46,034 bases of DNA from Nannocystaceae bacterium (GTDB lineage Bacteria; Myxococcota_A; Polyangia; Nannocystales; Nannocystaceae). Both the position numbers and the translations under genes were made by a program. The stretch is taken from positions 1-46,034 of the forward strand of contig JAXLYC010000019.1 of NCBI GenBank assembly GCA_046351635.1, given 5' to 3'. Positions 12,377 through 15,730 of the stretch are shown here, in pieces (the stretch's first letter is position 1; each line of letters begins with the position of its first letter). The notes under the pieces are model-generated. The model made no database searches. It was not told the origin of the DNA and was given only the letters and a program-made list of their open reading frames with translations.

Positions 12377-12479
12377 CGGGGGCGCGCCATCGCGATTTGG
12401 CGACATCGACTGAGTCACGCGGTTTCTCGGCTCACGATCCAGTGGCCGCGAGGTGAGCGCGGCTGACCGCCCCTTGCTG

Positions 12480-12735
12480 TTCCTGTCCGTGGTCGACGTG
12501 GTCGACGCCAGGCCGGGGCACCCGCGGGGCCGCTCCGGGCGCTCCGGGCCATCGGGCTGCTAGCGTCGGCAGCGTCGGCAACATCGCCCACGACGAACGC
12601 CTGGTTCAGGGCCCCGATGACAAGTCGCAGCCGTTAGATGTCTTGGGCTGCTGCTCGCCCACGTCCTGGCCCCCGTCCGGTGTCCGGTCGTCATGGGTCG
12701 TCGGTCGTCGTCGGTCGTCGTCGATCTGTCCCGAG
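12480..12735. repeat. Cluster of five short (7-12 bp) head-to-tail tandem duplications in non-coding DNA
   Basis: Read directly: gtggtcgac-gtggtcgac, gctccgggc-gctccgggc, agcgtcggc-agcgtcggc, gtccggt-gtccggt, and (ggtcgtcgtc) three times, all within about 250 bp. Confidence 0.5.
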
Positions 12736-13981
12736 CAACCTCTGCGGTTCGCTCTGCTGCCCAACATATCAGGCATTCAGCGGCGGGAGCATCAGGCGTA
12801 GCTCGATGAGCCGTCCCGTTACAACGGCTTGTTGGGCGGGCCCCCCGAAGACGTGGCGTCATATCCGGCGCGGTTGGACTTCAAAGCTGCGGCTTTTAGA
12901 TTTTCAGCCTGGGACCATCTGCCGGTACACGGACCATGTAGCAGAAACAGCTCTTCTCAAGTAGAGTGGGGGTCTTGAGGCCGCTCGGTCAATGGGCTCA
13001 AGTACGTCGATACCGGAACTCCACAAGCCTGTGCAGATAGAACACAGCGTACTTCTGTTTTTGTAGTGGCGAGCACCGCCTTCGTAGCGAGCGTCTCCGT
13101 TTCCGTGATCGCCGTCCCGTCGTCTGCTGTATGCGAAATCGATCCCGCGTCTGCCTTTCAGCATGGCGCCGTGTTCCACCGTCGTCTTTCGCGATGCGGT
13201 CCATCTGTGGTGGCGGCGAATGATCTCGCTGCCGACGAGGCGGTCCCAGTCGGCGAGCGGCTCTCCCCCTCGCGCGGCGCGCTTTCCGTCACAATGTCGA
13301 GATTGTAGTAGCGTGACTGCTTCGCGAATCTTGTGAGAAGCATGACCATGTTCTTCACGATTTCGTCATCAGGCGTGGCGTCTGCTCCAAGTCCGCGGAC
13401 CTCGTTTATCTCTCGCCTTATTCAGCAGGTTGTCGACATCGTGGCCCAGATCGCGGAGATATCTGTTGTCAGGGGTCTTCCATGCGTTCGATAGTAGTCG
13501 AGAACGACGATCAGCTTAAGAGAATGCGTTCAACCCGATCGTGAACGCGAATGACCGAGCGAAAAAATGCGCCTTTGTCGCCGAACGTATAGCGACGAAT
13601 GGAGTCGAACCCGTAGCAATATTGCTTGCGAAAGGATAGAATCGCCTCGAGTAGGAGGGGCCTCGATACGCTTCCATTAGCGCCTCCTCTGGGTTTCGTT
13701 TCGAGAACCGGCTCAGGCGCGCGTTATCGATTATTCGCACCAGACGTCGCACGCTTCATCCTTCCGGAGGTTGAGTAGCTTTGCGGATGTGAATCCCCAG
13801 CGCGCTCCCTCGACAAACACGTGCTGTCCCCCTCTTCCCAGCCAAGGCACCAGGTTCTCGCCTGGAACATATCCAGTGATCACCGAGGCCTCTCATCCGC
13901 GATACCGTGTTCAATCGGGTACTCGCTTGGGGACGCGTCTGTGGCCGGGCCGCGTGCAGCAGAGCCGCGCCGATTCTCCAG

Positions 13982-14446
13982 TCAACGGGGATAATAAGTT
14001 ACTTCGTGCTCCGCGCAAGGAGTGAAAAATGCGAGGCGGTCGGGGTTTGCGACAGCGTTTGGACTTCGTCGCAAGTTCTCGTAGAAGTCGGCACAGCTTT
14101 CGAAGCTGCTGCGACAGGAATTCGAGACCGGGTGTCGTCGAGAACAAAGACGCAATAGGCTGTTGGCCGCGGTGAAGCGAAAAGTGCTCGCTATGTGCGG
14201 TGTAGCGAGCTGCACACTGAGAGCGTGTTCGGAGCAGGTGTCCGCGAGTAGTTGCCCGTTCTCTCGCGCCATCCAGCAGGACCACTGGGGGCGTGCTTCA
14301 ACATCGGGCTGCGTCGCTCTTGCGGCGCCTTCCGAAGTTGCCATCGCGCCTGCGCGCTCGACTCGTAGGGACGCCTCGTCAGGTGCACCGCCACACGAAG
14401 CGAAGAGTCCTGATTCCACCGATGGCAACGACGCGCAGGGGCCCAT
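13982..14446 (-). CDS. Longest ORF inside the low-GC island (154 aa), hypothetical; may be a relic
   Basis: The composition is not Arg-rich (...RENGQLLADTCSEHALSVQLATPHIASTFRFTAANSLLRLCSRRHPVSNSCRSSFESCADFYENLRR...), but I recognise no motif. Confidence 0.2.
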   Translation of the reverse strand: MGPCASLPSVESGLFASCGGAPDEASLRVERAGAMATSEGAARATQPDVEARPQWSCWMARENGQLLADTCSEHALSVQLATPHIASTFRFTAANSLLRLCSRRHPVSNSCRSSFESCADFYENLRRSPNAVANPDRLAFFTPCAEHEVTYYPR

Positions 14447-15084
14447 GAGCAGGCTTGAGCCCAGCGCTGCTTGCCGCGTTCGATGTCGTCGCGGAGGTCA
14501 TCTTCACGCTCGCGCCTCTCAGCAGAACTCCAGGGGCGCTCCAGTGATCGCGGATACGGAGGCGACAAAGGCGACGGATCTGCTCGTCGTCGAGCTTGGA
14601 CAAGATGGGAAAATCGGTGGCGTTCCCGGCAGGCCCAGCGCCTGGGACCTCGACCCGAACGACGTTGAGGGGTAGCGCCCGTCTTCGACGCCCACGCCCA
14701 GTTCTTCGCGGGGTCCGTCTTGTGCTGCACCCACGCGCGCCAGGCCGTCAGGCCCTTGGCCTCACTCGACGTACTTCTGCCCATTGTGTCCGTGCTGAAT
14801 CGGTATCCACCGCATCAGGCTGCGCCTCGCGCCCATCGTAATTCGGCCAGACCCGCCCAGGCGCGCTTCTTCAGCAACGACCCAGCCTTTCGCGACCGTG
14901 CCAACACCCCTCACCACGATTCCACCGAGATCCCGGCCTTGCACCCCAAGCCCCCCGACTTTCCCCCGACCGCGTTATCCTGCAAGCTCGCTGCGTTTGT
15001 CCTTTCGGGCAACACTGCGAGCCGAGTTCGCGGGCTCGAGGCGTTCGGCGAATCGGCAGGTGTCCGGGCATGCGTGGCCGGCGA

Positions 15085-15215
15085 ACGGCTGGGAGTCGCG
15101 GTATCGCCCATGTTCGCACGCCTGCCAGCGCGCGGTTGAGCACGTGGGTGTAGACCATCGTGGTGTTCACGTCGCGCGTCTCCATCAGGCGCGCCCATGC
15201 GCCGGCGAAGCGCTC
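15085..15215 (-). pseudogene. 3'-terminal remnant of a tyrosine recombinase gene with the integron-integrase-type C-terminal box (catalytic Tyr)
   Basis: The minus-strand translation [44 protein letters not shown] matches the IntI-family C-terminus (LLGHSDVSTTMIYTHVLxxGGxGVRSPLDxLP). Only about 45 residues are present. Upstream of it, the minus strand is occupied by the cupin gene in another frame. Confidence 0.55.
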
Positions 15216-15244
15216 GCCTTCGCCCGCTCCCACCCCCGCAGCCG

Positions 15245-15730
15245 TCAGCGCGACTCGGGAAACCCGCTGCCATCCTTGCGGGTGAACAGCGCGCGTCCGT
15301 CGGGCCCCTTGCGGTACGCGAGGTCGACGTCGGGATACTCCGCGCCGTCCTCGAGGTCGCGGTTGCTGATCTCGAGGTAGCGCGCGTCCCGATCGCTGCG
15401 GTTGATCAGCTGATGCCCGTCGCGCGAGCCCGCGGCGAAGCCCGCACACATGCCCGCGGTCAGGATCTGCTCGCCGGCGTCGGTCACGAGCACGACCTCG
15501 CCCTCGAGCACGTAGACCAGCTCGTCCTCGCGCGTGTGCCAGTGACGCATCGCCGACTCCTTGCCCGGCGGCAGCGTGGTCAGGTTCACGCCGATCTTGG
15601 TCAGGCCCAGCGCGTCGCCCAGCGCCCGCTTCTCGCGCGGCAGCACGCGCGAACGATAGGGCTCGGGATAACCAGAGCCGGTGCGAGGGGACAGCGTCGC
15701 GGGGTCGAGTGCGGGGAGCAGCAGTGCCAT
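15245..15730 (-). CDS. Cupin-domain protein
   Basis: MALLLPALDP... with a cupin-2 core (GVNLTTLPPGKESAMRHWHTREDELVYVLEGEVVLVTDAGEQILTAGMCAGFAAG). ATG at 15730 and TGA at 15245-15247, both confirmed. Confidence 0.75.
   Translation of the reverse strand: MALLLPALDPATLSPRTGSGYPEPYRSRVLPREKRALGDALGLTKIGVNLTTLPPGKESAMRHWHTREDELVYVLEGEVVLVTDAGEQILTAGMCAGFAAGSRDGHQLINRSDRDARYLEISNRDLEDGAEYPDVDLAYRKGPDGRALFTRKDGSGFPESR

Follow-up and report, generated by a model that had tools for sequence, protein, structure and literature searches.

In a 46,034-nucleotide stretch from a Nannocystaceae bacterium (contig JAXLYC010000019.1; hereafter the window, meaning the full 46-kb stretch), an island of low guanine-plus-cytosine (GC) content at positions 12388-15237 lies between a small lipoprotein gene and a cupin gene, and the question that it raises is what this DNA was before its reading frames were lost. 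Our results indicate, with a probability of about 0.8, that the island is the relic of a chromosomal integron in the inverted-integrase layout. The sequence-only reading of the locus had suggested a decayed integron or a genomic-island relic, and the integron version specifically is supported by an integron-integrase remnant, an attC site, two pseudogenes on the cassette strand and the absence of the segment from sister strains.

We propose that low-GC DNA would have been captured here as gene cassettes by IntI-mediated attC x attI recombination, and that a later deletion may have removed the first ~300 codons of the integrase gene. Without integrase and selection, cargo and attC sites would then have decayed by indels and substitutions, and the locus would now be inactive except as a strain-variable spot. 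The parts of the island are listed below in window coordinates.

12388-12758, strand not applicable: spacer between the attC site and the lipoprotein gene, window-specific, GC 0.70, the place of the last cassette.
12759-12837, plus strand (the recombining bottom strand): attC site, with R' GCCCAAC at 12759-12765 and R'' GTTGGGC at 12831-12837.
12880-13677, minus strand: pseudogene psiY, from a family of ~265-275 amino acids (aa) with a predicted HEPN-like fold; ~10 frame changes plus internal stops.
13678-14518, no strand assigned: unassigned low-GC DNA between psiZ and psiY, ~0.76-0.84 kb.
14519-14815, minus strand: pseudogene psiZ, from a family of ~90-128 aa with the motif LNVVRVE..GPAGNATDFPI.S.
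14816-15092, minus strand: stretch just downstream of delta-intI, which from the layout would be the expected place of attI and the first cassette boundary.
15093-15188, minus strand: delta-intI, the integron-integrase remnant, comprising the last 26-32 codons; 26 residues align, and the WAIPRL extension is our own reading.
15173-15237, minus strand: B2, a 56-bp repeat element (GGGAGCGGGCGAAGGCGAGCGCTTCGCCGGCGCATGGGCGCGCCTGATGGAGACGCGCG) between the cupin stop codon and delta-intI.

The integrase remnant beside the cupin gene

The right edge of the island encodes an IntI-type integrase remnant, which includes the catalytic tyrosine of box II and the IntI-type C-terminal tail. A recombinase fragment had been read here before any search was made, on the understanding that the idea would fall if no significant similarity to tyrosine recombinases emerged. 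A profile search bore the fragment out: the similarity was significant, with NCBIfam TIGR02249 (integron integrase) as the best-scoring family (E=1.6e-4), matched at its C-terminal end only (model positions 287-309 of 315). The score was 21 bits against a TIGR02249 cut-off of 265, and an Xer-type model gave E=0.13. Among PDB sequences, the sole match at E<=10 was a weak one (E=0.084) to VchIntIA (2a3v), a Vibrio integron integrase, and the DNA of delta-intI was 80-90% identical to the 3' ends of many intI genes. As had been supposed, the rest of the recombinase gene is missing: in a tblastn search with a 335-aa IntI, 15188-15111 aligned to residues 302-327 with nothing more in the window, and residues 1-301 were absent from the whole of it. 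The reason once given for this loss, that the cupin gene begins 30 bp away, was mistaken. This gene is likewise on the minus strand, and what lies there is its end, the stop codon being at 15245-15247; the sequence between that stop codon and delta-intI is the 56-bp repeat element, not integrase sequence.

We also analyzed sister contigs, which were defined on the right flank as those encoding an identical cupin protein (one contig from a metagenome-assembled genome, or MAG, and five metagenome contigs) and were found on the left flank via the left-flank proteins. Two of them, L002 and L004, carried a longer intI remnant at the same junction, beginning 13 bp past the cupin stop codon. The L002 remnant scored 60.6 bits against TIGR02249 (E=1.6e-16) versus ~43-45 bits for XerC/D models, and the database homologues of the L002/L004 remnant (84-91% identical) all ended in the IntI-type tail HVLNRGPAGVRSPADRL. 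The best 120 database matches to the remnant were all short (50-91 aa) IntI C-terminal fragments with differing N-terminal starts, several of which sit on long contigs of up to 114 kb; this pattern probably combines a scoring preference for short targets with an abundance of intI pseudogenes. Furthermore, the longer remnant (L002 ~5391-5528; L004 2564-2653) contained an in-frame 9-bp tandem duplication (LLGLLG) and, beside the catalytic tyrosine, an H-to-R change, both of which we take as further signs of decay.

The same observations could be turned towards a relic of a non-integron genomic island or prophage with a phage- or Xer-type recombinase, in which case the attC hairpin described below would be incidental. 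Only 26-32 recombinase codons survive in the window, every tyrosine recombinase shares box II, the L002 remnant also scores 43-45 bits with XerC/D models, and the allele of sister contig L001 is a non-cassette 8.9-kb segment between direct repeats. However, the integron-integrase model was ahead by ~15 bits, and the C-terminal tail (VLNR..GVR) extends beyond the region aligned by the XerC/D models. Moreover, a blastn search of the island against plasmids and phages gave no match, the cargo families had no PHROGs match, the tRNA and tmRNA search of the window found none, no self-repeat of the island was found within the window, and the hairpin family shows integron core sites, extrahelical-base geometry and arrays beside full IntI genes. 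An island or prophage of this kind is thus already largely refuted and is, in our judgment, extremely improbable.

The joint between the cupin gene and delta-intI was itself altered in the window. B2 stands in the place of ~70 bp of integrase sequence that is still present in L002/L004, and its joint with the remnant is a CGCG microhomology. The same element occurs twice in L001, within a 107-115-bp direct repeat ('B2-D'; 10495-10601 and 19421-19535). These repeats flank the 8.9-kb GC-typical segment of this sister MAG, which codes for a PD-(D/E)XK-like 347-aa protein, an epimerase, a GT4 and radical SAM/SPASM protein, a methyltransferase and a His_Phos protein, and no attC was found in the L001 10-kb alternative segment. 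Of B2-D, the window holds the B2 half only; this is joined to the intI remnant in a way that would fit recombination between two alleles.

The attC site and the layout of the locus

The first clue to the attC site was a 20-bp match of 12816-12835 to sister contig L007, which led to a ~78-bp element in both contigs. The core sites in the window match R' RYYYAAC and R'' GTTRRRY and are mutually complementary. Two covariance models were used, R1 from four short sites and the broader R2 from 54 sites, and the window site scored 28.2 bits on R1 (E=7e-5 over 85 kb; 3e-6 locally) and 32.5 bits on R2 (E=8e-7). With well-folding sites in L007, L015 and L016 it shares 84-86% identity, and it represents a worn copy of the L015/L016 type, with several stem-breaking substitutions and two homopolymer indels; three model pairs are broken, an extra base stands next to the T bulge, and no terminal stem is left. 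The earlier suggestion of small open reading frames separated by attC sites held in so far as one attC is recognizable; there is no series, and our own core-site-plus-hairpin scan of the island found no further attC. A 135-nt candidate at 15007-15141 was rejected, its 'R box' being the VLN codons of intI.

The properties of the family are best seen in its intact members. The 88-nt stretch 3015-3102 that contains the L007 site (3021-3097) folds at -29.3 kcal/mol (z=-5.2), and the 77-nt site alone folds at -26.6 kcal/mol, as a long imperfect hairpin bounded by GCCCAAC and GTTGGAC. Single extrahelical bases stand at positions 16 and 23 from its 3' end with a 6-bp stem between them, and this geometry is exact in the sites of L007, L015, L016 and L013. 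Canonical attC bottom strands carry extrahelical bases at those positions (PMC5027507).

A scan of 185,579 species genomes with the 3' arm of the L007 site recovered six MAG contigs (L013-L018), and our data show that the hairpin of the family covaries and that the family forms arrays next to intact IntI genes. In an alignment of 21 sites, which had been fitted to the model, 94% of cells pair and 14 of the 25 pairs show compensatory changes, a result reached by 0 of 500 shuffles; slid controls on this alignment gave 27-44% pairing. Same-strand arrays detected with R1 comprised no fewer than 10 sites within 8 kb in L013 and 4 sites in L015, and arrays that were next to IntI or cassette-spaced were seen in L013, L015, L030 and L040, the window holding a single copy. 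The family (GCCCAAC..CCGTTCAGCGGC..G-T-CCGCTG-C-AACGGC..GTTGGGC) is common to MAGs labelled Myxococcales, Betaproteobacteria and Pseudomonadota.

Because the plus strand carries the attC bottom strand, the cassettes read on the minus strand, the same as the integrase remnant. The order on the minus strand is cupin gene, 56-bp repeat, last 26-32 intI codons, ~0.3 kb, psiZ, ~0.84 kb, psiY, attC, ~0.37 kb and lipoprotein gene, the last of these being convergent, on the plus strand, with its 3' end meeting the island. Classic integrons have the array on the upstream side of intI, in divergent orientation, whereas in the window the cassettes lie downstream of intI in the same direction. The attC model was run on 80 metagenome loci (L025-L104), in each of which the IntI C-terminus shows 80-91% identity to a consensus that combines the remnant with its homologues. 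This attC type was present in 19 of them, downstream and co-directional in 13, upstream and divergent in 5 and odd in 1, which suggests that relatives of this integrase often have the inverted layout. Locus L030 represents the intact state, with a 335-aa IntI (434.9 bits against the cut-off of 265) and six attC sites from 733 bp past its stop codon. In L088, an attC-like match stands on the integrase strand 6 bp past the stop codon. The inverted integron-integrase arrangement has already been described (PMC4889954).

Within the stretch just downstream of delta-intI, 14971-15176 is shared with L002 at ~94% identity. Neither R1 nor R2 found an attC in 14816-15092, a metagenome scan with the sequence downstream of the remnant gave 0 matches, and a comparison of the window with the 80 IntI loci revealed no conservation of a 'platform' or attI region.

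Given one integrase stub and one attC, we asked whether the two might be unrelated, the cassette having arrived alone at a secondary site or by homologous replacement in a hotspot and the integrase remnant deriving from something else. The single attC would fit such an origin, as would the uptake of non-cassette DNA by the same hotspot in L001, and IntI can insert cassettes at secondary sites (PMC4889954). Against this, 13 of the 19 related loci have a layout that agrees with the strand and order observed here, L007 as a sister strain shows a pair of attC sites at the corresponding place and in the same orientation context, and a remnant and an attC 2.3 kb apart are unlikely to have met by chance. 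We therefore regard a separate origin of the two parts as very improbable.

Composition, cargo and strain variability

The compositional step at the island is real, but it is milder and shorter than the fall to about 50% GC over 2.8 kb, exactly between two genes, that had first been perceived. In 500-bp segments, GC was 0.726 +/- 0.026 outside the island and lowest (0.532) at 13301; over 12.8-14.3 kb it fell to 0.53-0.62. The mean was 0.624 across 12380-15245, with 0.578 in 12838-14300 against 0.725 in the rest of the window, and 0.659 in 14300-15085. The first ~380 bp (12377-12758) still had a GC of 0.70; thus, the drop starts at ~12800, at the attC site, and not at 12380. This foreign composition supports the integron relic: the 0.58 of the island core compares with 0.725 around it, with 0.53-0.59 for the L007 cassette and with 0.53-0.58 for contigs bearing psiY homologues. 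A short imperfect tandem repeat (GTCGTCGGTCGTCGTCGGTCGTCGTCG) lies at 12690-12730, inside the GC-rich spacer.

The absence of intact genes, claimed at the outset, was confirmed in practice. The flanking genes show strong codon-position GC periodicity, which vanishes over the island, Pfam searches of all six whole frames and of ten long stop-to-stop fragments of the island gave no match, and homologies are confined to three frames with internal stops. A region with no intact open reading frame that has homologues might be a functional non-coding one, holding a non-coding RNA or a regulatory element, and the former had indeed been offered as an alternative. It found no support, since no Rfam family reached its gathering threshold anywhere in the window; the island is, furthermore, absent from near-identical strains, and its content is explained by pseudogenes. 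A functional non-coding region is effectively refuted, and we consider its chances negligible.

The cargo became recognizable when a stitched conceptual minus-strand translation was compared by full HMMER search with 1.84 billion representative proteins, which gave 223 matches in two blocks. An earlier word-indexed search with the three concatenated minus frames (2329 aa) had given no match; its design was poor, in that junk words filled the limit of 8000 candidates. The first block, psiY, matched its family with a best E of 3.3e-29 at 44% identity. By tblastn and a family hidden Markov model (HMM), it consists of eight collinear pieces in three frames that cover HMM positions 13-230 of 277, which implies about ten frame changes plus stops. 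Because psiY ends ~40 bp short of the attC site, the two together constitute one decayed gene cassette. Its closest homologue, P0121, has an attC site on either side (30.1 and 22.6 bits) and, with the downstream site starting 6 bp past its stop codon, is a textbook cassette. Another homologue stands in a co-oriented run with MazE/PIN and PIN/HicB genes.

The psiY family is predicted, very confidently by structure modelling, to have a HEPN-like fold. HEPN-domain proteins have a four-helix fold and an Rx4-6H catalytic motif. Members of the family (P0121-P0177; ~270 aa) share an invariant E11, E49-R50-x-x-K53, H78, R123-Y124 and P140-x3-W144, together with a nearly invariant Y125-N126-L127 and H156, and they occur in an attC-flanked cassette and beside toxin-antitoxin genes. 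Neither the psiY nor the psiZ family had a Pfam, NCBIfam, PADLOC or PHROGs match, and comparison of the cargo families with PDB sequences indicated no function.

The second block, psiZ, contains at least 4 frame changes and one in-frame stop, with tblastn pieces in frames -3/-1/-3/-2/-3. Its homologues (P0185-P0207) are 50-68% identical (E ~1e-8), and the pieces found with the family HMM are collinear (best E=6.6e-14). Between the two pseudogenes, 13678-14518 may be a third, unrecognizable cassette remnant. This middle stretch gave no Pfam match in six frames, no homologue for the stitched translation of 13.7-14.5 kb, none among the 150 listed of the 223 HMMER matches, and no second copy of the psiY or psiZ family by the family HMMs. 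Two weak tblastn hints of a second cargo copy there were dismissed as they were not collinear.

Comparison with sister contigs established that the segment is absent from sister strains, in keeping with the idea that the island is variable among close relatives rather than a conserved block. Flank identity was 98.5-99.9% in 11 of the 12 sister contigs and 97.7% in L002. On the left, identity stops at 12384-12387 in all sister contigs and at least 3 different continuations follow; on the right, it stops at 15170 in L001 and L006, and L002 matches to its contig end at 14971. Consequently, the window alone contains 12388-15170, and in other strains different DNA adjoins the same junctions.

An island private to one contig, in a spot where the sister assemblies break, could also be an artefact of assembly or sequencing, that is, a chimeric join or consensus-error frameshifts in cassettes that are really intact. 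Two of the attC differences are homopolymer-length changes, and the density of frame changes is very high, at least 14 in the ~1.1 kb of psiY and psiZ, compared with clean flanks that have at most 1 indel per 10 kb. This density fits long neutral decay, but it could be inflated if the strain-specific segment was assembled at low coverage. Speaking against an artefact, both flanks of the island were found in the same five samples, namely JGI 3300045365, SRR23702531, SRR17659557/8, SRR10035867 and SRR14234090, so the two are plausibly linked; L002 independently confirms 200 bp of the right end; and the pseudogenes also carry in-frame stops and many substitutions. An artefact thus seems improbable to us.

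Sister contig L007 displays a different cargo at the same spot. The homologous attC is preceded there by a gene for a 476-aa nSTAND_NTPase4 (3140-4570, minus strand), which is intact and has a GC of 0.53-0.59. Where the window has the spacer, L007 has a small lipoprotein open reading frame followed by a degenerate attC (2658-2716; 19.8 bits, compared with 48.2 bits for the site at 3021-3097), in which the AAC/GTT triplets are mutated and the score is higher on the opposite strand. That the island might be a decayed copy of the L007 nSTAND gene was rejected, there being no tblastx similarity. The cargo on both sides of the homologous attC sites is unrelated between the window and L007, which are 98.5% identical in their flanks, and the window belongs with L002/L004 to one truncated-intI lineage, sharing the junction 13 bp past the cupin stop codon, the 3' remnant and ~200 bp downstream of it. 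It is conceivable, although we doubt it, that cassette content at the locus turned over after the integrase was already dead. If L007 and L002 belonged to one genome, an integrase encoded elsewhere might have acted in trans and moved cassettes from an orphan array among very close strains or, alternatively, B2-D might mark a separate recombination module that swaps whole segments.

Weighing the probable relic against known integrons

Several findings weigh against an integron relic. The IntI-specific extra domain falls in the missing part of intI, and the remnant therefore cannot prove IntI identity by that criterion. The attC in the window is degraded and alone folds like its shuffles (z=-0.9), and it is the only one in 2.8 kb, with none more in 11500-16000 (R1 and R2, filters off); psiZ and the ~0.76-0.84-kb middle stretch lack an attC of their own, and the contexts of psiZ homologues are not cassette-like. 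The published rules of IntegronFinder discard a single attC without intI (PMC4889954). Within 14816-15092, we could name no candidate for attI or the cassette promoter (Pc); integron classes do not share a conserved attI (PMC4889954). Finally, among the contigs fetched the island was seen in the window only, so the quality of its sequence cannot be checked against a second copy.

The closest known system is the inverted integron-integrase group (Treponema-type; PMC4889954), in which intI and attC likewise share their orientation and the array likewise lies downstream of the intI 3' end. Core sites (RYYYAAC/GTTRRRY) are shared as well, the extrahelical bases at 16 and 23 being seen in the homologous sites of L007, L015, L016 and L013, and intact relatives (L030, L091 and others) have the same layout and attC family. 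The window differs in having just 26-32 codons of intI, a single weakened attC, cargo made up of pseudogenes and no nameable attI or Pc; it cannot work alone.

[quoted passage not shown] CALIN near intI pseudogenes numbered 15 of 279 in one study, and loss of intI is one proposed route to their origin (PMC4889954). The definition requires at least 2 attC sites, however; the window has one, and L007 has two, one of them degenerate. The window remnant is also far under the 50% profile coverage required in that study (PMC4889954). The locus likewise departs from the definition of a complete integron, with no full intI (21 bits against the cut-off of 265) although at least 1 attC is present. It fails both formal definitions, and the most fitting description is that of an integron relic accompanied by an intI pseudogene.

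Gillings et al. 2005 reportedly found chromosomal integrons in Xanthomonas pathovars that are in decay, vary between strains and have an inactivated intI. These share with the window a fixed site next to a core gene, an inactivated integrase and variable cassette content, but the host lineage here, a high-GC MAG, differs, the layout is inverted, and erosion of both cargo and attC has gone much further. Relics of this sort, inverted layouts and arrays that vary between strains have all been documented, and present knowledge of how integrons work is unaltered by our findings. What the locus adds is one more record of an integron decaying, in an environmental lineage of high GC, and an example of how such a fossil can be read, from a GC step at the attC and cargo recognizable only via stitched reading frames. 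Standard annotation pipelines would report nothing here, because the intI remnant lacks the necessary length and a lone attC is dropped. From the sister strains, the spot is seen to be variable and to hold, as a cassette, a defence-type gene that is intact (nSTAND NTPase). By-products of the analysis were the attC family shared by MAGs labelled Myxococcales and Betaproteobacteria, the count of inverted layouts and a cassette-borne family with a predicted HEPN-like fold.

Beyond the left edge of the island, 12098-12376 (plus strand) encodes a predicted small lipoprotein of 92 aa. Neither this gene nor the upstream 205-aa gene has a Pfam match on record; the lipoprotein has a long Ser/Asp/Gly/Thr-rich tail, and the start of its gene overlaps the stop codon of the upstream gene (ATGA).

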